Shown here piece by piece: positions 22,286 to 48,553 of a stretch of 48,553 nucleotides of DNA. A model generated the notes under the pieces. That model searched no databases and was not told where the DNA came from. It saw nothing but the letters and a program-made list of their open reading frames with translations. The stretch spans positions 1 through 48,553 of IMG/VR virus record IMGVR_UViG_3300045988_108834; one strand, 5' to 3'. Both the position numbers and the translations under genes were made by a program. How positions within the stretch are numbered: position 1 is the first letter of the stretch; each line of letters starts with the position of its first letter. Source of the stretch: a virus.

Positions 22286-22819
22286 TTACCTGAACACCTT
22301 AACATACTTCTGCAGGCGGCGTCTAGGGCCGGCGATGTGGTCGTACAGCAGCACCCAGCGGTCGTCTAATACGGGAGCCCACGTCACCTCGTCCTGTGCG
22401 GTGATCGGCTGTATCTCGTCGTCTACATTCAACACCGACACGTAAGCGTCCAACCTGAAGGGTATCTTGTTAAGGTCGTGGGCTTTAATGAAAGCCTGGA
22501 ATGTTTCGTGCCCACCGATAACCCACAGCTCGTCTTGGTCGTTGTGCGCGGTTTGCTCTATCGCCGCATAGGAGCTTGCCACCGCCTTGACCGTCTTGGT
22601 CGACTTCATGTTTTTGCTCAACACAATATTCGTCCTGTTAGGCAGTTTCTTGTTGCGTTGAGGCAATGACTCCCGGGTCTTCCGACCCATGACTATAACT
22701 TTGTTAGTCGTCATGTCCTTGAAGTGTTGTAGGTCGCCTCGGTCATGCCACGGCAACTTCCCGTTGACCCCGATGATCCCAGACGTCGACTGCGCCCAAA
22801 TGAAATGCACGTGAAACAT
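22286..22819 (-). CDS. folA: Dihydrofolate reductase
   Basis: IWAQSTSGIIGVNGKLPW..DLQHFK..T..KVIVMGRKT matches the conserved DHFR N-terminal core. The size is 177 aa. Confidence 0.9.
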   Translation of the reverse strand: MFHVHFIWAQSTSGIIGVNGKLPWHDRGDLQHFKDMTTNKVIVMGRKTRESLPQRNKKLPNRTNIVLSKNMKSTKTVKAVASSYAAIEQTAHNDQDELWVIGGHETFQAFIKAHDLNKIPFRLDAYVSVLNVDDEIQPITAQDEVTWAPVLDDRWVLLYDHIAGPRRRLQKYVKVFR

Positions 22820-26599: not shown

Positions 26600-26635
26600 A
26601 AGTAGCCCCTAGGACGTTAGTCCTAGGGGCTACTT
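26600..26635. terminator. Strong intrinsic terminator closing the early leftward operon
   Basis: 16-bp perfect stem AAGTAGCCCCTAGGAC / GTCCTAGGGGCTACTT with loop GTTA. The minus strand continues TGTGTTTTTGG. Confidence 0.8.
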
Positions 26636-26660: not shown

Positions 26661-26768
26661 TTACCCTACCGTACCGTAGCTTAGCGCTTCCACCATCACG
26701 CAGACGAACCAACCAGCGTACATCAGTCCAACTATTCCAACCCATATCTTAGTGAGAGTGATTCTCAT
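26661..26768 (-). CDS. Small hydrophobic protein, 35 aa (MRITLTKIWVGIVGLMYAGWFVCVMVEALSYGTVG)
   Basis: ATG 26768 lies 6 nt after GGGAGGCG. It contains one TM helix and is below the ORF-track cut-off. Confidence 0.45.
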   Translation of the reverse strand: MRITLTKIWVGIVGLMYAGWFVCVMVEALSYGTVG

Positions 26769-26832
26769 TAGCGCCTCCCTCCCCGGGCGCCGACTTCGCC
26801 GGCGACTCGACTTCGTTTCACGTGAAACATCA

Positions 26833-27480
26833 CTACAGTCCGACTGCGCGGCGGGCGTTGACCAGCGTCTCCACTTCCCTGGCGCCGTCGGGGCGCTCGA
26901 CCTCGCCGAGGGCCGGCCACAGTCGGTCTCGGACTACGCCGCCGTCTCCGGCCCGAACCACCACACACCCACCTTCGACGGTGAAGGCCCGCCTTGCTGT
27001 GCGCCGCCCCCACGCCACGGCGTCGGCGACGCGGTTGCATTCGAGCACGGTCAGCACCCGAGCCAGCGCCTTCGGAGACGCCACCCGAAGGGCGTCCATG
27101 CAAGCCTCCGCCATCGACGCGTGCGCGTAGAGGCTGCCGCAGTGCTCTAGCACCGCAGTCCGCATCAAGTCCCAGATGCCGTCGGCGTCGACGGGATCCT
27201 CCGGGTCATCGGCGCCGGCGTCTTCCCGCCACAGGTCGGTTCGAGTCTCGGCGTCGGCGCGGTCCCAGACCGTGGCCACGACGTCGTACTGGATATCGTT
27301 CCAGGTCTGTTCGATTTCGAACGCGGCTTCACAGTATTCGTCGTCTTCGTCCTCCCAGTCGGCGTCGAAGAGGAGCTCGATCCCGTCGTTCAGTTCGAGG
27401 CCCCGCTCGGCGAGGACGTCTGCGGCGGCGTCGAGGACGTCTTCATCGGCGACGGCTGTCAGGTAGGGGTGGAGGTGCAT
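26833..27480 (-). CDS. Highly acidic early protein (215 aa)
   Basis: ATG 27480 follows GAGAGAAAGGAAG inside the conserved leader. In the first ~105 aa I count about 35 Asp/Glu against 4 Arg/Lys. Confidence 0.7.
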   Translation of the reverse strand: MHLHPYLTAVADEDVLDAAADVLAERGLELNDGIELLFDADWEDEDDEYCEAAFEIEQTWNDIQYDVVATVWDRADAETRTDLWREDAGADDPEDPVDADGIWDLMRTAVLEHCGSLYAHASMAEACMDALRVASPKALARVLTVLECNRVADAVAWGRRTARRAFTVEGGCVVVRAGDGGVVRDRLWPALGEVERPDGAREVETLVNARRAVGL

Positions 27481-27512
27481 CGGAGTCTTCCTTTCTCTCT
27501 GTTGATCCGATG
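27478..27512 (-). promoter_or_regulatory. Leader hairpin copy 1 (SD in the loop, AUG in the 3' arm)
   Basis: RNA CAUCGGA-[21 nt loop with GAGAGAAAGGAAG]-UCCGAUG. Confidence 0.6.
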
Positions 27513-27517
27513 GTTTA

Positions 27518-27546
27518 AGTCTAGTGGGTCTCGGGCCCGAAGTCAA
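27518..27546 (-). promoter_or_regulatory. Early promoter copy 1
   Basis: On the minus strand: GGGCTTGACT, 17 bp, TAGACT. Confidence 0.65.
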
Positions 27547-27574
27547 GCCCGAAGGCCTGTGGTGTATCGCACAG

Positions 27575-27694
27575 TCAGCACCAGTCGAAGAAGCACTGCA
27601 GCGACGTCGGAAGGTGCTCCACGAGCTCCTCGCAGGTGGACATGAGCCCGTAGAAGGCGTCCCAGGCGGCGGCGGCGAAGTCGAGCCAGGTCAT
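27575..27694 (-). CDS. Micro-protein, 39 aa (MTWLDFAAAAWDAFYGLMSTCEELVEHLPTSLQCFFDWC)
   Basis: ATG lies 2 nt after the upstream stop (TGAGATG). It is the second gene of the copy-2 cassette. Confidence 0.45.
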   Translation of the reverse strand: MTWLDFAAAAWDAFYGLMSTCEELVEHLPTSLQCFFDWC

Positions 27695-27695
27695 C

Positions 27696-27821
27696 TCAGG
27701 CCTCCCATCCGCGGTTCTGACGGCGGCTCCGGCGTCGAGCTCGCTGGCGCTCGCGGTCTGCCCGGAGGCTGGCGACGAAGTCTGGGACGTCGATCTCGGG
27801 GATGAAGGTAGTGGTGTGCAT
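27696..27821 (-). CDS. Micro-protein, 41 aa, Arg-rich C-terminus (..RADRERQRARRRSRRQNRGWEA)
   Basis: ATG 27821 lies inside leader hairpin copy 2, behind GAGAGAAAGGAAAA. Confidence 0.5.
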   Translation of the reverse strand: MHTTTFIPEIDVPDFVASLRADRERQRARRRSRRQNRGWEA

Positions 27822-27852
27822 CAGCTTTTCCTTTCTCTCGTCTTCGCTGATA
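27819..27852 (-). promoter_or_regulatory. Leader hairpin copy 2 (compensatory variant)
   Basis: RNA (U)AUCAGC-[loop with GAGAGAAAGGAAAA]-GCUGAU(G). Three base pairs differ from copies 1, 3 and 4, and all three remain paired. Confidence 0.6.
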
Positions 27853-27857
27853 TCTCT

Positions 27858-27887
27858 AGTCTAGCGGCTACCGGGCGTCTGCGTCAA
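27858..27887 (-). promoter_or_regulatory. Early promoter copy 2
   Basis: On the minus strand: GGGCTTGACG, 18 bp, TAGACT. Confidence 0.65.
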
Positions 27888-28050
27888 GCCCGTAGTGTAT
27901 GACCTGTATCACAGTCAAGCCCAGCACCGTCGGTTCGTCTCGGATGCCCGCGTAGGCGTCCCAGCGCCCGAGGTCTTCGCCGCAGCCCCAGCCGGTCAGG
28001 AGGCCGGCTGCGACGGCGACGGCCGCCCAGAAGCGCCTCACCGGTCCCAC
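27868..28050 (-). CDS. Small protein, 60 aa, one hydrophobic segment
   Basis: GTG start overlaps the end of the 24-aa ORF. A FWAAVAVAAGLLTGWG segment is present. The 3' end runs into promoter copy 2. Confidence 0.4.
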   Translation of the reverse strand: MGPVRRFWAAVAVAAGLLTGWGCGEDLGRWDAYAGIRDEPTVLGLTVIQVIHYGLDADAR

Positions 28051-28112
28051 CCGACTACGTCGTCGCGCACACGGAGCTCGACGACGGCGTTGGCGGTTTT
28101 CCAGGTGTTCAT
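28038..28112 (-). CDS. Micro-ORF, 24 aa (MNTWKTANAVVELRVRDDVVGWDR)
   Basis: ATG 28112 lies inside leader hairpin copy 3, behind GAGAGAAAGGAAC. Confidence 0.4.
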   Translation of the reverse strand: MNTWKTANAVVELRVRDDVVGWDR

Positions 28113-28141
28113 CGGAGTTCCTTTCTCTCTTCGTTCCGATG
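28110..28141 (-). promoter_or_regulatory. Leader hairpin copy 3
   Basis: RNA CAUCGGA-[ACGAAGAGAGAAAGGAAC]-UCCGAUG. Its 37 nt are identical to copy 4. Confidence 0.65.
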
Positions 28142-28146
28142 TATTC

Positions 28147-28176
28147 ATTCTAGCGGTCCTCCGGAGGGGCTGTCAA
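28147..28176 (-). promoter_or_regulatory. Early promoter copy 3 (consensus)
   Basis: On the minus strand: TTGACA, 18 bp, TAGAAT. The -35 hexamer is exactly the loop of a 12-bp inverted repeat (28159-28188). Confidence 0.7.
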
Positions 28177-28197
28177 GCCCCTCCGGAGTGGGCTGCG

Positions 28198-28413
28198 TCA
28201 CACTTCCACGCCCCAGTCGGCGACGGCGCTCCGGAGGGTCGGCCAAGCTTCGGTCTCGCCGCACTCGCGGACCCGGACTGCGCCGTCGGCGTAGACGGTC
28301 AGCGTGCCGTCGGGGGTATCGGCTTGGACTGCGCCGTCGGGCAGGACGAAGGCGAGGCCTCCGAGCTTCTCGGTGAGCGACTTCGCCAGGGCCTGGCTGT
28401 AGGGGTAGGTCAT
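28198..28413 (-). CDS. Small early protein, 71 aa
   Basis: ATG 28413 lies inside leader hairpin copy 4. The product reads MTYPYSQALAKSLTEKLGGLAFVLPDG... Confidence 0.6.
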   Translation of the reverse strand: MTYPYSQALAKSLTEKLGGLAFVLPDGAVQADTPDGTLTVYADGAVRVRECGETEAWPTLRSAVADWGVEV

Positions 28414-28442
28414 CGGAGTTCCTTTCTCTCTTCGTTCCGATG
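28411..28442 (-). promoter_or_regulatory. Leader hairpin copy 4
   Basis: Sequence identical to copy 3. Confidence 0.65.
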
Positions 28443-28447
28443 TATCC

Positions 28448-28476
28448 ATCCTCGCACAGTCGAGCGGCGCTGTCAA
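28448..28476 (-). promoter_or_regulatory. Early promoter copy 4
   Basis: On the minus strand: GGGGCTTGACA, 17 bp, GAGGAT. The -10 element is weaker than in the other copies. Confidence 0.5.
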
Positions 28477-28496
28477 GCCCCGAGCGTGTGTTCTCC

Positions 28497-28745
28497 GTCA
28501 CATTTCCATGGTTGCTCGGGGCGCCTTCGGCGCGGCGGACTCCGGGCCCGGCTGCGCACACGGGAGCTCGGGGCCGACGCCGGAGTCGGAGACCCGCCCG
28601 AGCAAGTGTGCCCCAGATCACAAATTGTATTTTCCATGGTTGCTCGAGAGCCCCTCGAGCGTGATGAAGGTCACATTGTGACATTTCTCACATGGTTGCT
28701 CGAGAGCCCCTCCGGGTGTGAGATTGCTCACATGGATCCTCGAGC
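28497..28745. repeat. Dispersed direct repeats CATGGTTGCTCG(A/G)G with upstream TCACA(T/A)(T/A)T elements
   Basis: CATGGTTGCTCG occurs at 28507, 28635 and 28691, with the variant CATGGATCCTCG at 28731. TCACA half-sites precede each copy. The palindrome GTCACATTGTGAC lies at 28669-28681. Confidence 0.65.
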
Positions 28746-28949
28746 TAGGACCTTAGTCCCGATTTCACGAAAGTGAGACGAAGCTCACATTTTGAGTTTC
28801 GGGATTTTCGCAACACCGACGTTGCGTAATTGCTCGGGGCCGTCTCCGGGGCCGCTGCGCACACCCCCGGCCTTCGGGGCCGCCCCCTCAGGCTTCGAAA
28901 TCGCCGCTCTGAGGGCCTGAGGGGCCCCGCCGGTAGGGTGGCCCTAGGC

Positions 28950-29027
28950 GGGGCGTCTGCGGGCCTCTGAGGGGCGTCTGCGGGCCTCTGAGGGGCGTCT
29001 GCGGGCCTCTGAGGGGCGTCTGCGGGC
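28950..29027. repeat. Tandem repeat, 21-bp unit GGGGCGTCTGCGGGCCTCTGA x about 3.7
   Basis: Three perfect copies at 28950-28970, 28971-28991 and 28992-29012, plus a 15-nt partial copy. Confidence 0.9.
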
Positions 29028-29031
29028 ATGG

Positions 29032-29059
29032 GAAGGCCCCCGCCGGAGCGGGGGCCTTC
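29032..29059 (-). terminator. Intrinsic terminator after the 28-aa ORF
   Basis: 12-bp perfect stem GAAGGCCCCCGC / GCGGGGGCCTTC with loop CGGA, 4 nt after the stop codon. Confidence 0.7.
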
Positions 29060-29063
29060 GGGC

Positions 29064-29150
29064 TCAGCCTTCGAAGTCTTCCAGGATGTCCGCCAGGTCT
29101 GCGGTGTAGTAGCCGCCGAGCTCTTCGAAGAAGTCGATTTCGATGTCCAT
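29064..29150 (-). CDS. Micro-protein, 28 aa, very acidic (MDIEIDFFEELGGYYTADLADILEDFEG)
   Basis: ATG 29150 follows GAGAGAAAGGAAAC. It is the first gene after promoter copy 5 and is followed by a terminator. Confidence 0.5.
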   Translation of the reverse strand: MDIEIDFFEELGGYYTADLADILEDFEG

Positions 29151-29188
29151 TGGGGTTTCCTTTCTCTCTTCCCCCTTGTTGTACCTCC

Positions 29189-29218
29189 ATTCTACCAACC
29201 GCCACCCCCCAGTGTCAA
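29189..29218 (-). promoter_or_regulatory. Early promoter copy 5 (consensus), the outermost leftward promoter
   Basis: On the minus strand: GGGCTTGACA, 18 bp, TAGAAT. Confidence 0.7.
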
Positions 29219-29265
29219 GCCCTGAGGGTGTGTCCTTCGCCACATTTCTGAGAGCCATACGCCAC

Positions 29266-29352
29266 GGTAACCTACCGACCCGTACCTTACGCCATCGTAA
29301 CTTACCAGGCGGTAACTTACACCTACGTAGTGGTAACTTACGGTTACGTAGG
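29266..29352. repeat. Phased 10-mer array (C/G)GTA(A/C)C(C/T)TAC plus an 8-bp inverted repeat
   Basis: Copies start at 29266, 29281, 29296, 29311 (15-bp period) and 29332. CCTACGTA (29322-29329) pairs with TACGTAGG (29345-29352). Confidence 0.7.
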
Positions 29353-29374
29353 TAAAAGTCGACATTAAAAGTTA

Positions 29375-29473
29375 CAAAGAGGACCGTTTTCGAATTTCGG
29401 GGGCAGGTTTCGGCTTCAAAGAGGACCGTTTTCGAATTTCGGGGCTCAAAGAAGACGGTTTTTAGAACGACGG
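29375..29473. repeat. Direct repeats CAAAGAGGACCGTTTTCGAATTTCGGGG (two perfect copies plus one degenerate)
   Basis: Identical 28-mers lie at 29375-29402 and 29417-29444. A degenerate third copy lies at 29447-29473. Confidence 0.85.
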
Positions 29474-29820
29474 TCGAGCGGAACCCCCGCCGTCCAAAGT
29501 GCACACCGCACCGCTCGGCGGCGAACGGCACCCCGTCAGGGTCACGAGATTCGATTCTGAGGCGATTTCAGCCCCCGACCCAAGCGACCCTACCGGGGCG
29601 CCCCTGTAAGGAGCTCAGAGAGCAACCTCGTGCGTCTGAGGGGCATCAGGCGCCCCCGGGACGGCGCACAGCCCAAGGCGCACACCACACCGAGCGGGGG
29701 CGTGTGACGATTTGTCACCAAACGACAAGGTCGTCCCTCCTAAGGGTTTGCAACTCAGAGGTATCAAACGACAAGAAGTCGAGATTCGGCTGCGGCGAAA
29801 TTCGGCGTATATGTAACACA

Positions 29821-30000
29821 CACCACCACTTCTGACAGCAGATTTGTAATTTCAAAGTACCATATATATGGGAATATATAACGTTATTGTAATGTGTAGG
29901 GGTGTACTGTGTTAGGGAGAGGATTTCTGCTGAGAACCGTTCTCAATAAGAAAAGACGTAGATAGTGGAACTATCGTTTCACATAGCTGAACACTGAGAG
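29821..30000. other. AT-rich trough (about 39% GC) in the divergent intergenic hub; candidate DNA-unwinding element / origin
   Basis: By-eye GC is 33%, 45% and 38% in three consecutive 60-nt lines, against about 59% genome-wide. It contains CATATATATG and has no credible ORF. Confidence 0.4.
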
Positions 30001-30134
30001 TCACTGTCAGAATTTCTTGCCACTTTGGGGTGTGCGCCTACGACTTTCCCCGTCATTCCGCCCCTTTGGGGTGTGCGCTGTGCGTCGAGGGCGCGCGGGC
30101 GCGCGATTATAACACAACACCCTCAACAACACCC

Positions 30135-30150
30135 TGTGACCAAAATCACA
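30135..30150. promoter_or_regulatory. Perfect CRP/GlxR-type palindrome TGTGA-N6-TCACA
   Basis: TGTGACCAAAATCACA ends 9 bp upstream of the -35 element of the first rightward promoter. Confidence 0.45.
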
Positions 30151-30159
30151 TTCCACGAT

Positions 30160-30188
30160 TTGACTTGAAATCGATCCGGGCCTACACT
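30160..30188 (+). promoter_or_regulatory. First rightward (early) promoter
   Basis: TTGACT (30160-30165), 17 bp, TACACT (30183-30188). The 14-mer TTGAAATCGATCCG occurs in the spacer (30165-30178) and again in the leader (30199-30212). Confidence 0.65.
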
Positions 30189-31675: not shown

Positions 31676-32329
31676 ATGACCGCAACGTACATAGCACTGG
31701 AGGGCCCCGACGGAGTGGGGAAATCGACTGTGGCAGCGGCGCTGAAAGAGGTCTTTCAGCGCCGCACCGTCGCCCCCTCTTATTCCACTGTGCGCATACG
31801 GCACTTCCCGACCGACGCGCTGGTAGTGTGCGCACAAAACGAAAACCACCGCCTGACGGCGGAGGACTACGCGAGGGACATGGAGAACTGGCTCTCCTTC
31901 CGACCGGAGCCCGTGTTGTTCCCCGACACGCCGACCACAGCGAGCGAAGAACAGCTGTACATTCTGGATAGGTGGGCGCTCAGCACCGCGGTGTACGCCT
32001 CGCTGCGAAATGAAAAGGTCGCGGAGAACACAGCGCTCACGCTGAACTGGCTGAACCGCGTTCCGCTGACGACGTTCGTGTTGATGCCCCGCGACCCCGC
32101 CGCCCTCGAAGACCCGGACTACCCGGACCCCGACGGTTACAACCCCGTCCCCGTCGCCGAGGCGTACCGGAAGTTCCTGTCGAACGCGTTCGTCGCGGGG
32201 GAGATGTCGAGGTTCATACCGATTGAGGTGGACCGCGCGCAGGACACACCTGACTCTGTGGCTGCAGAGATCGCTGAATGGACAACCGAGCTGCGAAGAA
32301 GTGACGCACACCTCACATGGGGTGCTTGA
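31676..32329 (+). CDS. tmk: Thymidylate (dNMP) kinase-like protein
   Basis: The P-loop is YIALEGPDGVGKST, and LDRWALSTAVY is equivalent to the Tmk DR(Y/W)..S..AY motif. Confidence 0.7.
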   Translation: MTATYIALEGPDGVGKSTVAAALKEVFQRRTVAPSYSTVRIRHFPTDALVVCAQNENHRLTAEDYARDMENWLSFRPEPVLFPDTPTTASEEQLYILDRWALSTAVYASLRNEKVAENTALTLNWLNRVPLTTFVLMPRDPAALEDPDYPDPDGYNPVPVAEAYRKFLSNAFVAGEMSRFIPIEVDRAQDTPDSVAAEIAEWTTELRRSDAHLTWGA

Positions 32330-32355
32330 CCGCTGCCCCCACGTGCGCCTAGACT
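32326..32355 (+). promoter_or_regulatory. Internal promoter
   Basis: TTGACC (which contains the tmk TGA stop), 18 bp, TAGACT. The -35 hexamer is flanked by GGGGTGC and GCTGCCCC arms. Confidence 0.55.
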
Positions 32356-32387
32356 GTAGGCACAGTCGAACGAAAGGAGAGAAAAAC

Positions 32388-32951
32388 ATGATTGATGTGT
32401 GTTATACGCCGGATCTTCTGGCTGCGTTGGTTGATATACCGCCGTCTGCTTGGTTGAATACGATTCGGTACATACGGGGCCGGGTACCATTCTCTGAAGC
32501 ATTCGTGAACAACTTGAAGGCTGCTGCACACCCATCCGGTGTGCTCATCCTTGAGAAGCCAGATGGGTGTGCTATCGTTTCGTGCACTGTGGAGTATTCC
32601 GTTAATCGCCACTGTGTGACGACGTGGTTAGATGCGAAGGGCCGGACTCTCGTGAAATTAGATGAGTTTCTTCACAATGTTGAAACGCGGTTCGGGTTGG
32701 TCGTGTCCAAAGCGTCGCTGTCCCACACGAGAAGGGCGCTCAATGGGCGGTTGGAGCTCGTTGTGGCCTTGCGGGATGGTTCGTTTCGGGTGTTCGATTT
32801 CGGTCGTGACGCCGAAGTGATTTCGGTGGACGATGTGCCGCACGCGACATTAGACGTTCGCGAGGAGTATAAACCTGATCGGGTCGTGACGTCGTTTTTC
32901 GAGACGGATCGAGATAACCCGTGGCTCCAGGTTGTGGAAGAAAGGAGATAA
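32388..32951 (+). CDS. Hypothetical protein, paralog of 32957..33469
   Basis: ATG follows GAAAGGAGAGAAAAAC. It shares the N-terminal YTPDLLAAL and the C-terminal DNPWLQVVE with the next gene. Confidence 0.7.
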   Translation: MIDVCYTPDLLAALVDIPPSAWLNTIRYIRGRVPFSEAFVNNLKAAAHPSGVLILEKPDGCAIVSCTVEYSVNRHCVTTWLDAKGRTLVKLDEFLHNVETRFGLVVSKASLSHTRRALNGRLELVVALRDGSFRVFDFGRDAEVISVDDVPHATLDVREEYKPDRVVTSFFETDRDNPWLQVVEERR

Positions 32952-34837: not shown

Positions 34838-34858
34838 CGGGTAGTGATGTATTTCACA

Positions 34859-34898
34859 GGGCGGGGGCTTGACGGCTCCCGCCCTTTCCGTGTAGGCT
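34859..34898 (+). promoter_or_regulatory. Terminator hairpin with embedded promoter
   Basis: An 11-bp stem (34859-34869 with 34874-34884, including G-U pairs) is followed by TTT. TTGACG (34869-34874) at the hairpin tip, 18 bp, then TAGGCT (34893-34898) form the promoter. Confidence 0.55.
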
Positions 34899-34933
34899 GG
34901 ACGCACAGCAGTCAAGAGAAAGGACATCGTACT

Positions 34934-35488
34934 ATGGGTTTCGAAAAACCACGGGACTACGTGGTGGCCCTGAAAAAGCTTGAGGGGTTCCCGCTGATGG
35001 GCATAGAGGTTCGGGACGGTCACTTGGTCTTCGCCAGCCTGTCCCGTCAAGTGTCGCTTCCTTTGCATGGGGTGAGAGGAAGGGGATACAAGGTGGCCCG
35101 CTATGGCTTGAACAAGCTTGACGTGCTTGTGAGTGATGTGGAGTACAATGACCAGTCCGGGTGCGTTCGACTCTTAGACGAGAACGGCGATGTTACTGCG
35201 CACGTGGAGCTTAAGAACGTCACTCGGGCAGAGCAGCTGCTCCACGAGCTGCACGGTCGGAGTCTGCGTGGCTCGATGACCGTTAACACATATAAGAAGT
35301 ATGTGCGGCTGGCTGACGGCGTGGTGTTCACGGGGGAAGCCGATGGCCTGGCCGGCGTCTTCGTACAATGGCGGTTTCTCGACTTGCCGGTGGATCGGAT
35401 CAACGATTGGGGTAACAAAGTGTCTATCATGACCGAGGAAGGCGCAGCAGTCGAGATACTCTTCAGAAAGGAAGACGGCAATGACTGA
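34934..35488 (+). CDS. Hypothetical protein, paralog of 35481..36089
   Basis: ATG follows AGAGAAAGGA. Its VRLLDENGDVTAHVEL matches WRLIDEEGHAVLTVEL in the next gene. Confidence 0.7.
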   Translation: MGFEKPRDYVVALKKLEGFPLMGIEVRDGHLVFASLSRQVSLPLHGVRGRGYKVARYGLNKLDVLVSDVEYNDQSGCVRLLDENGDVTAHVELKNVTRAEQLLHELHGRSLRGSMTVNTYKKYVRLADGVVFTGEADGLAGVFVQWRFLDLPVDRINDWGNKVSIMTEEGAAVEILFRKEDGND

Positions 35489-46669: not shown

Positions 46670-46894
46670 ATGACGAAAGCGACGCTGTACACGAAACCAG
46701 GATGTGTGCAATGCAAGATGACGAAGAAAGACCTGACGAAGAAAGGCATACCGTTCGACGAGGTTGACATCACCGAAGACCACGACGCACTGTCCTTTGT
46801 GCTAGGACTCGGTTATAAGCAGGCGCCGGTTGTGGTGATCGGTCAGACGCACTGGAGCGGGTTCCGCCCTGACATGGTCAGGAAGTTCGTTTGA
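46670..46894 (+). CDS. nrdH: NrdH-like glutaredoxin
   Basis: 74 aa with the CVQC redox motif and a ..WSGFRPD.. C-terminus. Confidence 0.8.
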
Positions 46895-47700
46895 TGAACA
46901 CAATTGACAGACAGTATGAGGTTCTTCTCGCAGACGTTCTGAAGCACGGGGTGGAGAAGAAGGATCGCACAGGGGTGGGGACGCTGTCCGTCTTCGGGCG
47001 GCAGATTCGATACGACCTGAGTAACGGCTTCCCTCGTATAACGACGAAGTTCGTTCCGATGAAAGCGGTGAAGGGCGAACTTCTGTGGTTTCTATCAGGC
47101 GACACGAATATCAAGTGGTTGAAAGACCATGGTATCACTATCTGGGACGAGTGGGCCGATGCAGATGGCAACCTCGGGCCCGTGTACGGACACCAGTGGC
47201 GCTCCTGGCCTGCACCGGATGGAAAGGGCATCGACCAAATCTACGAGGTCGTTGAGAGCTTGAAGGCCGATCCGGACTCCCGCCGGCATATCGTGTCGGC
47301 ATGGAACGTCGGCGACTTGGACGCCATGGCTCTTGCACCGTGCCATGTTCTATTCCAGTTTTATGTAGCAGGCGGCAGGCTATCGTGTCAGCTGTATCAA
47401 CGTAGTGCGGACTTGTTCTTGGGTGTGCCTTTCAATATAGCGTCGTATTCCTTGTTGACGCACATGATCGCACAGCAAACAGGCTACGACGTGGGCGAGT
47501 TCATCTGGACTGGAGGAGACTGCCATATATACAAGAACCACGTAGTGGCTGTGCGAGAACAAATCACCCGCAACCCCTACCCGTTTCCCGAGCTCAGCCT
47601 CAAGAAGGCGCCATCGATATTCGACTATCAAATGAGTGATATATACGCATCGGCCGGGTACAAACACCATCCCGCCATCAAGGCCCCCGTGGCTGTATAA
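46891..47700 (+). CDS. thyA: Thymidylate synthase ThyA
   Basis: By eye it is collinear with E. coli ThyA: [59 protein letters not shown] and KAPVA. Asn is retained in FNIASY, indicating dUMP specificity. Confidence 0.95.
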
Positions 47701-47730
47701 TCGAAGACCCATCGTAGAAAGGACGATATT

Positions 47731-48553
47731 TTGACTGTTAACATCGACCCCATCTCCACAGTGGAGGAGTACGTGGAGCAGGCGGATTGGCGCGTCAACG
47801 CGAACGCGAACCAGGGCTACTCCGTCGGCGGCCTCATTCTCAACGCCGCCGGCAAGACGATCGCGAACTATTGGCTGTCGAAGGTGTACAGCGAAGAAGA
47901 AGGAGCCGCACACAGAAACGGCGACTACCATATCCACGACCTCGACATGCTCGCGGGCTATTGTGCGGGCTGGTCGCTGCGCCGCCTGCTCGAAGAGGGA
48001 TTCAACGGCATCGCGGGGGCCATCGCCTCCGATCCGCCGCGTCACTTCAGGTCGGCCTGCGGCCAGATCGTCAACTTCCTCGGCACGCTGCAGAACGAGT
48101 GGGCGGGGGCCCAGGCCTTCTCGTCCTTCGACACGTACATGGCGCCGTTCATCCGGCTCGACGGGCTGGACTATGCGGAGGTCAAGCAATCAATGCAAGA
48201 GCTCATTTTCAATCTCAACGTTCCAAGCCGTTGGGGCAGCCAATGCCCCTTCACGAACCTGACGTTCGACTGGACGTGCCCGGCCGACGTGGCCGACGAC
48301 CACCCCTACATCGGCGAGGAGGTCTGCGACTTCACGTACGGGGACCTCCAGGCCGAGATGGACACGATCAACCGCGCCTACATCGAGGTCATGATGGAAG
48401 GCGACGCCGACGGCCGCGTCTTCACCTTCCCTATCCCGACCTACAACATGACGAAGGACTTCGACTGGGAGTCGGACAACGCCCGCGCCCTGTTCGATAT
48501 GACCGCGAAGTACGGCCTGCCCTACTTCCAGAACTTCATCAACTCCGAGCTCG
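47731..48553 (+). CDS. nrdD: NrdD, N-terminal part (continues at nt 52 after the junction)
   Basis: TTG 47731 follows GAAAGGAC. The product reads ..NANQGYSVGGLILN..HRNGDYHIHDLD.. and the frame is open to the window end. This ORF is absent from the ORF track. Confidence 0.85.
   Translation, partial: MTVNIDPISTVEEYVEQADWRVNANANQGYSVGGLILNAAGKTIANYWLSKVYSEEEGAAHRNGDYHIHDLDMLAGYCAGWSLRRLLEEGFNGIAGAIASDPPRHFRSACGQIVNFLGTLQNEWAGAQAFSSFDTYMAPFIRLDGLDYAEVKQSMQELIFNLNVPSRWGSQCPFTNLTFDWTCPADVADDHPYIGEEVCDFTYGDLQAEMDTINRAYIEVMMEGDADGRVFTFPIPTYNMTKDFDWESDNARALFDMTAKYGLPYFQNFINSEL
48503..48553. repeat. 51-nt exact duplicate of nt 1-51 (circular assembly overlap)
   Basis: The two strings are identical and the duplication lies in frame inside nrdD. 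Confidence 0.95.

Follow-up and report, generated by a model that had tools for sequence, protein, structure and literature searches.

What does a phage gain by repeating, ahead of five small genes, one promoter design followed by a leader that is little more than a hairpin? The question is raised by the window analysed here (the whole stretch of DNA, 48,553 nucleotides), which belongs to an uncultivated phage whose host family is probably Actinomycetaceae, judging from ThyA identities of 74-79%. All five leftward modules reported by the initial annotation are found on the minus strand at the positions it gave, each comprising (i) GGGCTTGAC as the -35 element, (ii) a 17/18-nt spacer, (iii) a TAGAAT-like -10 element (GAGGAT in the fourth copy, as described), and (iv) GAGAGAAAGGAA followed by ATG. 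We infer five small non-structural transcription units driven by near-identical, strong predicted promoters, their 'early' timing being deduced from position only. The cassette lies in a non-structural region, divergent from the replication genes, with its own terminator at the end. The genes, named c5 to c1 in the direction of transcription, are as follows.

29064..29150, minus strand: c5, a 28-aa acidic peptide (MDIEIDFFEELGGYYTADLADILEDFEG)
28198..28413, minus strand: c4, 71 aa, ORFan
28038..28112, minus strand: c3, 24 aa in this phage
27696..27821, minus strand: c2, 41 aa
27575-27694, minus strand: 39-aa gene downstream of c2 and coupled to it
26833..27480, minus strand: c1, 215 aa, N-terminal half acidic

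The variation in the downstream ORFs is biased to the third codon position, which indicates that the AUGs are real starts; c4 shows coding-type variation among relatives, and the c5 peptide keeps a constant length in 19 distinct coding sequences. The c1 product is an ORFan with relatives (301) solely within this phage family, and the c2 product ends in a conserved arginine-rich motif, RADRERQRARRRSRRQNRGW. The 24-aa ORF of c3 had been regarded as a micro-gene; compared with its relatives, which range from 24 to 104 aa, it is instead the in-frame deletion remnant of a 104-aa gene.

The promoter elements stand out from the background of the window, where GGGCTTGAC occurs 8 times against 0.46 expected and exact matches to GAGAGAAAGGAA are confined to the five modules. 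A consensus promoter scan picks up four modules, two of them at 11/12 matches. The GAGAGAAAGGA core, allowing up to 2 mismatches, yields 20 matches against 3.4 expected and is in part a genome-wide extended Shine-Dalgarno (SD) sequence, not a module-specific element. A sixth copy of GGGCTTGAC, lying at 27914-27922, mimics the modules but has no usable -10 element. In addition, every module carries a CRP-like GTGA-N6-TCAC box, absent from the initial annotation, 10 nt upstream of the -35 element (11 nt in c1).

29229..29244, minus strand: c5 upstream box TGTGGCGAAGGACACA, 10 nt upstream of -35
29189..29218, minus strand: c5 promoter, TTGACA, 18-nt spacer, TAGAAT
28487..28502, minus strand: c4 upstream box TGTGACGGAGAACACA
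28448..28476, minus strand: c4 promoter, TTGACA, 17-nt spacer, GAGGAT
28187..28202, minus strand: c3 upstream box TGTGACGCAGCCCACT, overlapping the c4 stop codon
28147..28176, minus strand: c3 promoter, TTGACA, 18-nt spacer, TAGAAT
27898..27913, minus strand: c2 upstream box TGTGATACAGGTCATA
27858..27887, minus strand: c2 promoter, TTGACG, 18-nt spacer, TAGACT
27558..27573, minus strand: c1 upstream box TGTGCGATACACCACA, 11-nt gap to -35
27518..27546, minus strand: c1 promoter, TTGACT, 17-nt spacer, TAGACT

Three perfect 16-bp box palindromes occur in the window, and five further box copies without promoters cluster at 28607-28789; decayed promoter copies lie at ~28650-28730. Like CRP/GlxR sites (TGTGA-N6-TCACA), the box is a 16-bp palindrome of that consensus, and it precedes every promoter in the class by a constant distance; its centre, however, falls near -54, away from the class I and class II positions known in E. 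coli, so that it is best described as a candidate site. Some modules also place the -35 element in the loop of a terminator-like hairpin, another feature that had gone unreported.

29032..29059, minus strand: GC-rich hairpin 3' of the c5 gene, -32.8 kcal/mol, the likely terminator of the c5 unit
28159..28188, minus strand: GC hairpin of 12-13 bp whose loop contains the -35 TTGACA (-32 kcal/mol, z -5.3), a terminator-like element fused to the c3 promoter
27518..27554, minus strand: hairpin centred on the c1 -35 element, -17.9 kcal/mol, within the promoter
26600..26635, minus strand: terminator closing the leftward cassette, 16-bp stem plus T-run

Downstream of each -10 element comes the leader.

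29148..29175, minus strand: c5 leader, GGGG(G)/CCCC hairpin around the SD, plus ATG
28411..28441, minus strand: c4 leader from the predicted +1, AUCGGA, 18-nt loop with GAGAGAAAGGAA, UCCGAUG
28110..28140, minus strand: c3 leader hairpin
27819..27851, minus strand: c2 leader hairpin, AUCAGC/GCUGAUG, compensated variant
27478..27511, minus strand: c1 leader, AUCGGA, 21-nt loop, UCCGAUG

Folding bears out the earlier description of a one-hairpin leader that holds the SD in its loop and the AUG in its stem for c1-c4, each of which is predicted to form a single hairpin of -8.2 to -8.6 kcal/mol when the -1 base is included and of ~-5 kcal/mol from the predicted +1. The c5 leader differs, having, as noted before, a GGGG/CCCC stem only (-6.9 kcal/mol), which is not 5'-terminal and leaves the ATG outside. 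The SD positions are 89-95% unpaired in the minimum free energy structures of c1-c4; the 8 nt complementary to the 16S 3' end (AGAAAGGA), with a core, GAAAGGA, that resembles STAB-SD, lie 6-9 nt from the AUG. The identity between the c3 and c4 leaders holds, over a run of 36 nt and not 37, which extends beyond the c3 leader by 4 nt on the upstream side and by 1 nt on the downstream side. Single-sequence z-scores of -1 to -3 are unremarkable, so that the case for the hairpin rests on comparative data.

These data come from ~35 related viral contigs of 45-49 kb that carry the same modules in unchanged order, the succession c5/Y-c4-c3-c2-c1 being kept across ~30 genomes; an unrelated gene, Y, may occupy the slot of c5, and c1 is found in only ~14/31 genomes. 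Among 45 distinct anchored leaders (45-56 across analyses), 97.8% of the helix cells are paired, compared to 20-53% once the 3' partner has been displaced by 1-3 columns, and RNAalifold independently recovers the identical 7-bp helix. Double changes occur at two pairs of the helix: one is GC in 33 leaders and AU in 12, never broken, and the innermost is AU in 26, GC in 6 and CG in 5, where C-G to G-C, lacking a pairing intermediate, denotes true double changes. Four stem haplotypes are present among relatives, AUCGGA/UCCGAU, AUCAGC/GCUGAU, AUCAGG/CCUGAU and AUCAGA/UCUGAU, all complementary, whereas loop length varies between 15 and 23 nt, which supports the proposal that selection acts on pairing over sequence. 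Within the window, the c2 stem had been credited with three changed pairs; two do change (G-C to A-U and A-U to C-G), and the middle G-C is the same. The covarying haplotypes are few and all within c2 orthologs, and since these phages undergo recombination, with homogenisation of c3/c4 leaders inside a genome, the independent events are few, perhaps 3-4. Wobble cells inside the transcript (7 A.C versus 3 G.U/U.G) do not tell the two strands apart.

The position of the helix is equally constrained, the stem running from the sixth nt after the -10 element to the start codon in 111/111 c1-c4 modules. An invariant Y-A occupies nt 6-7 after the -10 element, the canonical -1/+1 for bacterial RNA polymerase, which supports a 5' arm locked to the predicted start site; the arm begins 6-7 nt after the -10 element, at the predicted +1, as the initial annotation had expected. 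The whole module is moreover portable between two phage families: one copy is found in an unrelated family of ~18 kb phi29-like podophages, near a contig end, a position that also enters into the deduction of early timing. The identical stem sequence in both hints at a sequence-specific constraint or a recent transfer, beyond structure alone.

What the helix does can be approached through other leaders of these phages. A second class (X) displays unrelated covarying hairpins, with at least 5 unrelated stem sequences of -8 to -15 kcal/mol, located before the SD and separated from the predicted 5' end by 1-4 nt. In Y leaders a 5'-end UGUCA pairs with the UGACG of AUG plus codon 2 (-8.4 kcal/mol, z -2.8). 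The feature common to these classes is 5'-end pairing, rather than SD/AUG occlusion. One module elsewhere in the window offers an internal contrast.

34843..34936, plus strand: R module, box AGTGATGTATTTCACA, TTGACG inside the loop of a terminator-like hairpin, TAGGCT as -10 element, SD and ATG

Its promoter-to-ATG part (34865-34936, plus strand) has no leader hairpin; together with the c5 hairpin, which is not 5'-terminal, this shows that 5' pairing is not universal for this promoter type.

The reading that we favour, tentatively and at slightly less than even confidence, is that of a portable expression cassette in which a weak 5'-terminal helix (-5 to -8 kcal/mol) protects the transcript end and displays the extended SD. 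Host primary-sigma RNA polymerase would read each self-contained module, with the box presumably bound by a dimeric CRP-like host factor and, in some copies, the hairpin around the -35 element insulating the unit from upstream transcription. With the predicted start at the invariant A, the seventh nt after the -10 element, transcription would yield a leader of 28-31 nt. The six bases at its 5' end, AUCGGA or one of the compensated versions, could pair with the six bases ending in the AU of AUG. The free mRNA would offer no single-stranded 5' end to pyrophosphohydrolase, RNase E or RNase J, with the 8-nt SD kept single-stranded in the 15-23 nt loop. Because the helix is weak (~-5 kcal/mol), a 30S subunit that has bound the SD in the loop could open it, and the bound ribosome would cover most of the short leader, so that the 5' end would be either base-paired or ribosome-covered. 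If true, the outcome would be stable, heavily translated messages for small non-structural proteins. The underlying principle is established: the 5' termini on which RppH and RNase E act must be single-stranded, mRNAs gain stability from 5' stem-loops and from strong SDs, and Mycobacterium possesses both RNase E and RNase J (PMC3997798). The X leaders, with 5'-end hairpins upstream of the SD, favour such protection among the three roles previously put forward. Against it, the stem always includes the AUG, as a translational role also predicts.

Translational control, the most serious competitor, we consider unlikely. The helix would occlude the start codon, either setting a fixed, low-to-moderate initiation rate or serving as an operator clamped by a phage or host RNA-binding protein that switches all the small genes off together, much as T4 RegA does, or the MS2 coat protein when it binds the replicase hairpin. 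It would account for a 3' arm ending in AUG in all 111 modules and in the podophage copy, for the U.G pair retained by GUG starts and for the Y-class pairing with UG plus codon 2, and the arginine-rich motif of c2 is typical of RNA-hairpin binders. However, a helix of just ~-5 kcal/mol from +1 competes with an SD that offers 8 nt of complementarity to the 16S 3' end, so the gating proposed earlier would be mild at most; the loop flanks vary in sequence and length, and the SD is the only part conserved, leaving little for a specific protein to read, which disfavours the suggested protein-recognition role. X-class 5' hairpins do not touch the AUG, and the SD-AUG spacer of 6-9 nt forces a non-coding 3' arm to overlap the AUG anyway.

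Less probable again is a recombination substrate, in which the ~90-bp box-promoter-leader unit serves small-gene swap, loss and duplication and the hairpin is a passenger, without selection for an RNA role. Several observations fit: c3 and c4 leaders differ by an edit distance of 2.0 within genomes versus 2.75 ± 0.15 between genomes and coincide exactly in 9/31 genomes where 2.6 would be expected (0/2000 permutations); c5 and Y alternate at one slot, c1 is patchy and c3 variable in length; in L032 and L041 the c1 promoter has a swapped upstream half; and decayed promoter copies, the module shared with the podophage, and the promoter-early stem-loops (PeSLs) as precedent (PMC4122927) point the same way. 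Recombination accounts for similarity, but it explains neither the compensatory changes nor why the arms are so strictly anchored to +1 and AUG, and the conserved gene order indicates a region that is not very plastic. It is also compatible with 5'-end protection, not exclusive of it.

We give little credence to nut-like sites, at which the arginine-rich c2 protein would bind leader hairpins on nascent RNA and let polymerase read through the promoter-fused hairpins and the terminator at 26600-26635 into lysis and structural genes. The conserved c2 C-terminus, the 16-bp terminator closing the cassette and the terminator-like hairpins overlapping the c3 and c1 promoters suit this scheme, as does the lack of a good sigma-70-like minus-strand promoter from position 26600 leftward across the structural genes, a negative from a consensus scan that is blind to late promoters of another type. 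On the other hand, c2 has no homology to N or any antiterminator, boxB-type sites have small, defined loops instead of variable ones of 15-23 nt with the SD inside, and the hairpin is present in the podophage too. A DNA-level inverted repeat (dimer operator or cruciform) or an RNase III processing site is very improbable: the arms do form a perfect 6-7 bp inverted repeat adjoining the promoter, with AUCGGA/UCCGAU highly conserved even across two phage families, but an 8-bp variation in spacing would rotate and separate operator halves, half-sites changing in concert would not be tolerated by a fixed protein, the GTGA-N6-TCAC palindrome, separate and conserved in sequence, already fills the operator role, and a helix of 6-7 bp falls far short of the approximately two helical turns required by RNase III, making the recognition role once proposed for that enzyme unlikely.

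Among described systems, the closest kinds seem to be 5' stabiliser leaders and PeSL-like composite motifs. The former include the 5'-terminal stem-loops of ompA and papA, the aprE leader (5' stem-loop plus ribosome-binding site), the cryIIIA STAB-SD and the SP82 polypurine stabiliser (PMC3997798), which rely on an extreme-5' helix and/or a strong SD near the 5' end, both known to block 5'-end-dependent decay; the present leader, whose stabilising effect is presumed, would fuse both within ~30 nt, the 5'-terminal helix enclosing the SD in its loop and having the start codon as its 3' arm. PeSLs of T4-like phages (Arbiol 2010; Comeau 2014, PMC4122927) are likewise repeated units of ~50-100 bp, comprising a sigma-70-type early promoter, SD, start codon and stem-loop, that lie between small, mostly ORFan non-structural genes with degraded copies nearby, and are tied to gene replacement and loss as the present modules are to gene conversion. 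They differ in that their stem-loops immediately precede the promoter and function in termination, whereas here one hairpin encloses the -35 element and a second, distinct one is the mRNA leader itself; moreover, they lack sequence homology to these modules, which belong to a siphovirus and a podovirus of a high-GC Gram-positive host and keep a largely conserved, not hyperplastic, gene order.

The start-associated sequences (SAS) and extended SAS (ESAS) of Cluster K mycobacteriophages offer another conserved, SD-containing motif of actinobacteriophages, located a few nt before the start of many non-structural genes, with ATG preferred, flanking inverted repeats in some copies and a proposed role in translation (PMC3203893). 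The motif is not the same (GGGATAGGAGCCC) and SAS is not promoter-linked; ESAS inverted repeats lie upstream of SAS without compensatory changes, whereas the arms described here flank the SD, are tied to +1 and AUG, and covary. Finally, although a conserved leader hairpin and upstream box are not described for SPO1, its host-takeover module, in which short early genes, singly or in pairs, have a strong host-sigma promoter and a strong ribosome-binding site (Stewart 1998; PMC6873191), resembles the present cluster of short, presumably early genes with their own strong predicted promoters and ribosome-binding sites.

The leftward arm of the cassette comprises five units, here called c5, c4, c3, c2 and c1 in order of transcription, each consisting of a promoter, a leader and a small gene:

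29250 to 26600, minus strand: leftward block of five units, c5 to c1

As the initial annotation described, and as a promoter scan and motif counts bear out, all five carry a promoter, a Shine-Dalgarno (SD) sequence and an ATG, in the order GGGCTTGAC(A/G/T), a 17- or 18-nt spacer, TAGAAT, TAGACT or GAGGAT, six nucleotides, a leader with GAGAGAAAGGAA, and the start codon. The motif GGGCTTGAC occurs eight times in the 48.5-kb window against 0.46 expected, and the arrangement is that of a primary-sigma (sigma-70/sigma-A) promoter, for which TTGACA-like -35 and TAnnnT-like -10 hexamers 16-18 nt apart are expected; a consensus scan calls four of the modules, two at 11/12, the c4 promoter being TTGACA, a 17-nt spacer and GAGGAT. 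Among the 167 unique modules extracted, which were classed by the downstream protein and not by the stem, the spacer measures 17 nt in 81 and 18 nt in 85, and the predicted +1 is the A of an invariant Y-A at nucleotides 6-7 after the -10 element, which in c4, c3, c2 and c1 of the window falls at 28441, 28140, 27851 and 27511. A further GGGCTTGAC at 27914-27922 was rejected as a tandem promoter because only 13 nt separate it from any -10-like hexamer. The exact 12-mer GAGAGAAAGGAA is confined, within the window, to the five leaders; near-copies stand upstream of many other genes (20 matches with up to two mismatches, 3.4 expected), so that its core AGAAAGGA is the extended SD of this genome, complementary to the 3'-terminal UCCUUUCU of Gram-positive 16S rRNA.

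Folding supports the description of the c1-c4 leader as one hairpin (-8.2 to -8.6 kcal/mol including the -1 base, about -5 kcal/mol from the predicted +1) and of c5 as retaining only a GGGG/CCCC helix around the SD. Single-sequence z-scores of these folds are ordinary, and the structure is thus unprovable from one window alone. The stem of every c1-c4 module (111 of 111) starts at the sixth or seventh nucleotide after the -10 element and ends with the start codon, enclosing a loop of 15 to 23 nt; its placement about 0-2 nt from the transcript 5' end depends on the predicted +1. In minimum free energy structures of the leaders, the SD is 89-100% unpaired. The stem haplotypes comprise (i) AUCGGA/UCCGAU, (ii) AUCAGC/GCUGAU, (iii) AUCAGG/CCUGAU, (iv) AUCAGA/UCUGAU, and (v) a 5-6 bp AUCGG/CCGAU form, with a few G.U cases, among them GUG starts in which U.G is retained.

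In a structure-blind alignment of 45 distinct rows, anchored on the -10 element and the AUG, 97.8% of cells are paired, compared with 20-53% when the partner is slid; one stem pair is GC in 33 rows and AU in 12, with none broken, and the innermost pair is AU in 26, GC in 6, CG in 5, GU in 1 and otherwise in 7. Two pairs show double changes, the covariation expected of a structure kept by selection, and RNAalifold, run on 56 full leaders, arrives at these same seven stem pairs, in agreement with the earlier proposal that RNA pairing is selected. The compensation attributed to copy 2 (c2) holds in that pairing is kept, with two pairs changed instead of the three reported, and the run shared identically by copies 3 and 4 (c3 and c4) spans 36 nt and not 37. 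The double changes are restricted to c2 orthologs and the haplotypes are few; as these phages recombine, the independent compensatory events number perhaps three or four, and the same stem types are found on differing promoter backgrounds. Wobble-pair asymmetry and counts are indecisive on which strand folds, the assignment of the helix to the RNA sense resting on its anchoring to promoter and AUG.

RppH and RNase E require single-stranded 5' ends, at least two unpaired nucleotides in the case of B. subtilis RppH, and mRNAs are stabilised by 5' stem-loops and by strong SDs near the 5' end; mycobacteria possess RNase E plus RNase J (PMC3997798). In the c1-c4 leaders, a six-base helix would begin at +1, an 8-nt SD would be displayed, and the 28-nt untranslated region would be nearly covered by the initiating ribosome, such that helix, displayed SD and ribosome would between them never leave the 5' end exposed. 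Our preferred, still tentative, reading is that the leader design protects the 5' end from 5'-end-dependent decay.

Other leader designs follow the same type of promoter. X, a module class of related phages preceding a gene that begins MRTMPT (contigs L008, L010, L015, L016, L021, L034, L037, L039-L041, L045 and L049), displays hairpins of -8 to -15 kcal/mol upstream of the SD, 1-4 nt from the predicted +1, with stems of at least five unrelated, mutually compensated sequences; the X counterpart in the window, at 32326-32390, has no hairpin. In the Y class, 5'-UGUCA pairs with UGACG, made up of codon 2 and the preceding UG of the start codon, and a GGG/CCC helix lies inside this pairing (-8.4 kcal/mol, z -2.8). 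The leader of R, a plus-strand module, is devoid of a helix, and that of c5 has the inner helix only. Pairing of the first transcript bases is common to c1-c4, Y and X, and an SD in the loop to c1-c5 and Y; the AUG is involved in c1-c4 and Y only. The main rival, a translational role in which the stem occludes the start codon or serves as an operator, draws on the invariable inclusion of the AUG in the c1-c4 stem, but the helix is of low stability, the loop flanks vary and the hairpins of class X speak against it, so that we consider it unlikely.

Indels and exchanges between close relatives are associated with the modules, namely c5/Y replacement, presence or absence of c1 (present in about 14 of 31 genomes), c3 deletions, c3/c4 homogenisation and promoter-half swaps, the last exemplified by two contigs (L032 and L041) in which the upstream half of the c1 promoter is replaced by a c3-type half. 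The c3 and c4 leaders differ by an edit distance of 2.0 within a genome versus 2.75 +/- 0.15 between genomes, and are identical in 9 of 31 genomes versus 2.6 expected (0 of 2000 permutations). Recombination would thus account for the similarity of the repeats; as their sole explanation it is improbable, since it leaves the compensation in the stems unexplained.

A leader-alone search disclosed the whole unit in a further eight contigs, each about 17-18 kb long (L085, L087-L092 and L094; for instance at 838-935 of L085), where it occurs once and close to a contig end. This copy comprises the box TGTGgggtgtTTCACA, 9 nt, TTGAC, 18 nt, TATACT, ggatac and the leader AUCGGAUCGAGAGAAAGGAUCAyUCCGAUG, and precedes a 184-aa ORFan; the major capsid protein is 42% identical to that of phi29-like Arthrobacter podophages (Arthrobacter phage Anjali). 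These contigs represent an unrelated phage family, which presumably shares the host. A promoter-based scan for further podophage variants returned the same eight contigs only. The leader-alone metagenome scan gave at least 36 matches lacking GCTTGAC just upstream; among those listed, about 29 are singletons of mixed GC with no promoter, judged chance or unrelated, and the other seven are phage-family copies whose -35 is a variant or which a contig end truncates, the listed matches beyond both phage families being singletons without a promoter. That two unrelated families carry the module suggests a transfer of regulatory cassettes, as well as of genes, between phages that share a host.

Upstream of TTGAC, a (T)GTGA-N6-TCAC(A) palindrome, hereafter the box, is found in every module of the eight classes, relatives included, and in the podophage unit. 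The best-matching box lies 10 nt from TTGAC in 142 of 154 unique upstream regions, and positions G-25, T-24, G-23, A-18 and C-14 are conserved at 92-94%; in the window the gap is 11 nt at c1 and 9 nt at the promoter at 30160, the first rightward one, which is preceded by a perfect box. Hairpins rich in GC enclose the -35 of several modules. Boxes and hairpins in the window are located as follows:

27558-27573, 27898-27913, 28187-28202, 28487-28502 and 29229-29244, minus strand: boxes of the five leftward modules
30135-30150 and 34843-34858, plus strand: boxes of rightward promoters
28159-28188 and 27530-27554, minus strand: GC hairpins with the -35 in the loop
34859-34884, plus strand: GC hairpin with the -35 in the loop

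Counting TGTGA-N6-TCACA with at most one mismatch, the window contains 11 sites against 1.5 expected, eight of them within 27898-30150 and one just upstream of the R promoter. Judged by sequence, the box matches the CRP/GlxR consensus, a palindrome of the kind used as operator by the CRP family, which makes a host CRP-family protein a candidate binder of this putative operator; the scanned phage ORFs yielded no CRP-like domain. Perfect boxes also occur at 28677-28692 and 28717-28732, within a cluster of five boxes at 28607-28789 that lacks usable promoters. The cluster may act as a regulatory sink or be what is left of modules since lost. The same stretch (28600-28790) holds, besides these five promoter-less boxes, decayed promoter copies, with GGGGCTCTCGAGC where GGGGCTTGACAGC is expected in two module copies, and a thrice-repeated GAGCAACCATGGAAA within 28607-28789.

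The -35-enclosing hairpins occur in c3 (-32 kcal/mol, z -5.3), R (-27.3 kcal/mol, followed by UUUCC), c1 (-17.9 kcal/mol) and X, and by eye their stems show compensatory variants in relatives; c2, c4 and c5 have no clear hairpin around the -35. The enclosing hairpins resemble terminators joined to the promoter that follows, an arrangement by which each unit would be insulated. A bolder reading, to which we give little credence, takes box, promoter and leader hairpin as a regulon-style 'plug' adopted by two phage families that are unrelated but infect the same host: a CRP-like host factor bound to the box would couple the earliest phage expression to the physiology of the host, and the clamp from 5' end to start codon would be a dedicated post-transcriptional switch, read by c2 or a host factor and leading to coordinated shut-off or antitermination, instead of a passive stabiliser. 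If true, Actinomycetota phages would control their early genes together in a way that is new.

The cassette proteins comprise c5 (28 aa, acidic), c4 (71-73 aa), c2 (41 aa), c1 (215 aa, with an acidic N-terminal half) and Y (69 aa), in all of which variation is biased to the third codon position, indicating that the AUGs within the stems are real starts. Searches of PHROGs, Pfam and PDB sequences with all cassette proteins returned no family, and the AlphaFold2 model of c1 (17-sequence alignment, mean pLDDT 47.7) is unusable. The 301 relatives of the c1 protein all derive from this phage family and, with about 35 near-complete genomes, document phages common in human-associated metagenomes. The c3 'micro-gene' (28038-28112, minus strand; 24 aa in the window) is an in-frame deletion remnant that joins the N-terminal 11 aa to the C-terminal tail of the 104-aa protein of relatives, c3 measuring 24, 47, 49, 84, 99 or 104 aa among genomes.

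The c2 protein (27696-27821, minus strand) has a conserved arginine-rich C-terminal motif, RADRERQRARRRSRRQNRGW, which recalls peptides that bind RNA hairpins, lambda N among them; Pfam, PHROGs and PDB sequences yielded no homolog. A nut-like antitermination system operated by this peptide would fit the terminator at 26600 and the structural genes lacking sigma-70-like promoters, but we regard it as very improbable. Identity with the lambda N/nut boxB system was rejected: boxB requires a GNRA-like pentaloop, a boxA and an N-family protein, and the loops here are variable and 15-23 nt long. On the coding (minus) strand of 4001-26600, encoding lysis and structural genes, no good sigma-70-like promoter was found (best 9/12), and late-gene transcription could proceed by read-through or antitermination or from another promoter type.

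That the hairpin is a DNA operator or an RNase III site is scarcely credible, given the variable spacing, arms that change in concert and a length of only 6-7 bp; the RNase III recognition element suggested initially fails because that enzyme needs a continuous or nearly continuous duplex of about 20 bp or more. An RNA thermometer (ROSE or fourU) was rejected since it needs an SD paired in the closed state and the SD here is unpaired. A CsrA/RsmA target or RsmY-like RNA, expected to show GGA in a short hairpin loop, was likewise discarded, with loops of 15-23 nt and an RsmY score of 23.9 bits for the c5 unit against a gathering threshold of 57; nothing in Rfam came near its gathering score at a permissive threshold, and CsrA is not known from Actinomycetota.

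The unit resembles the PeSLs of T4-like phages (PMC4122927) in that an early promoter, with SD and start codon, is repeated among small ORFs and is associated with indels and exchanges between close relatives, here in a mostly stable gene order. In PeSLs a terminator-like stem-loop lies immediately upstream of the promoter; the strong hairpins of c3, c1, R and X enclose the -35 instead. The SAS/ESAS of Cluster K mycobacteriophages are based on a 13-bp GGGATAGGAGCCC located 3-7 bp upstream of the start, whereas the present leaders contain GAGAGAAAGGAA; the likeness is of kind only, the logic of 16S complementarity having been applied to SAS as well (PMC3203893). The element is a variation on two known kinds, the 5' stabiliser leader and the PeSL-like composite promoter motif, and does not form a category of its own. 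The initial annotation thus stands as an observation, extended here by the box, the -35 hairpins and the decayed copies; its interpretation is supported in part.

The module is a compact, naturally optimised cassette for high-GC Gram-positives, a group with few characterised phage regulatory parts, and combines an operator box, a strong promoter, a 30-nt structured leader and a displayed SD. It offers a test case for the trade-off of 5'-end pairing, SD display and start-codon occlusion, with natural material behind the same promoter, including compensatory variants, the hairpin-less control R and the alternative designs X, Y and c5. As these phages have no cultured relative, the modules also mark conserved small ORFan proteins that likely act on the host.

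The window represents a near-complete genome of siphovirus type, and a circularly permuted one, since NrdD is split over both ends (1-1019 and about 47700-48553). The minus strand encodes terminase, portal, capsid/protease and tape measure, and the plus strand primase, DNA polymerase, helicase, dCTP deaminase, ThyA, the split NrdD and the NrdD activase. DHFR and a C5 cytosine methylase are also encoded (coordinates given for this enzyme set, 46891-47700 and 22286-22819); the ORFs that were scanned include no integrase, phage RNA polymerase or sigma factor. The ThyA protein shares 74-79% identity with those of Trueperella, Arcanobacterium, Actinobaculum and 'Actinomycetaceae bacterium', pointing to a probable Actinomycetaceae host, with which the anaerobic ribonucleotide reductase is consistent. 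The genome is without a close cultured relative: the portal has distant actinophage relatives only, and neither a GenBank phage DNA search with the region nor tblastn with the c1 protein gave a match. The cassette and the replication genes are divergent, with a repeat-rich spacer of 1 kb between them, and a 16-bp terminator followed by a T-run (26600-26635) marks the end of the cassette. From this position we infer early expression.

A pattern scan of IMG/VR recovered 54 loci from about 35 contigs, each 45-49 kb long, that carry these modules in the conserved order c5 (or the unrelated gene Y)-c4-c3-c2-c1, with X and R on the opposite strand; one identical contig derives from run ERR589363. 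A module scan of 185,579 species genomes gave 29 chance matches, scattered and single, and hence no sign of a prophage. Phage-homologous sequence is present at L101 and L118 (contig BNJU01001455.1, 123 kb) and L165 (contig ERZ772807.1-NODE-1, 244.5 kb), on contigs far exceeding the 48-kb genome. These contigs could be concatemer assemblies or reflect integration into a host chromosome; in the latter case they would show which host is infected and that the lifestyle is temperate.

A perfect 21-bp tandem repeat of 3.7 copies, GGGGCGTCTGCGGGCCTCTGA on the plus strand, lies at 28950-29027, just downstream of the c5 terminator hairpin, with a related copy at 29629-29647. At 29258-29445, in the non-coding spacer of 1 kb that separates the divergent operons, are five or six GGTAAC(C/T)TAC iterons with a central inverted pair (29315-29359), followed by the 28-nt CAAAGAGGACCGTTTTCGAATTTCGGGG, which is repeated exactly in direct orientation at 29375 and 29417 and has a third, degenerate copy; this array could be an origin, or a site for packaging or regulation. 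Past c1 on the minus strand are a perfect 14-bp palindrome, GTTTCACGTGAAAC, at 26815-26828 and a gene for a 35-aa hydrophobic peptide at 26661-26768.
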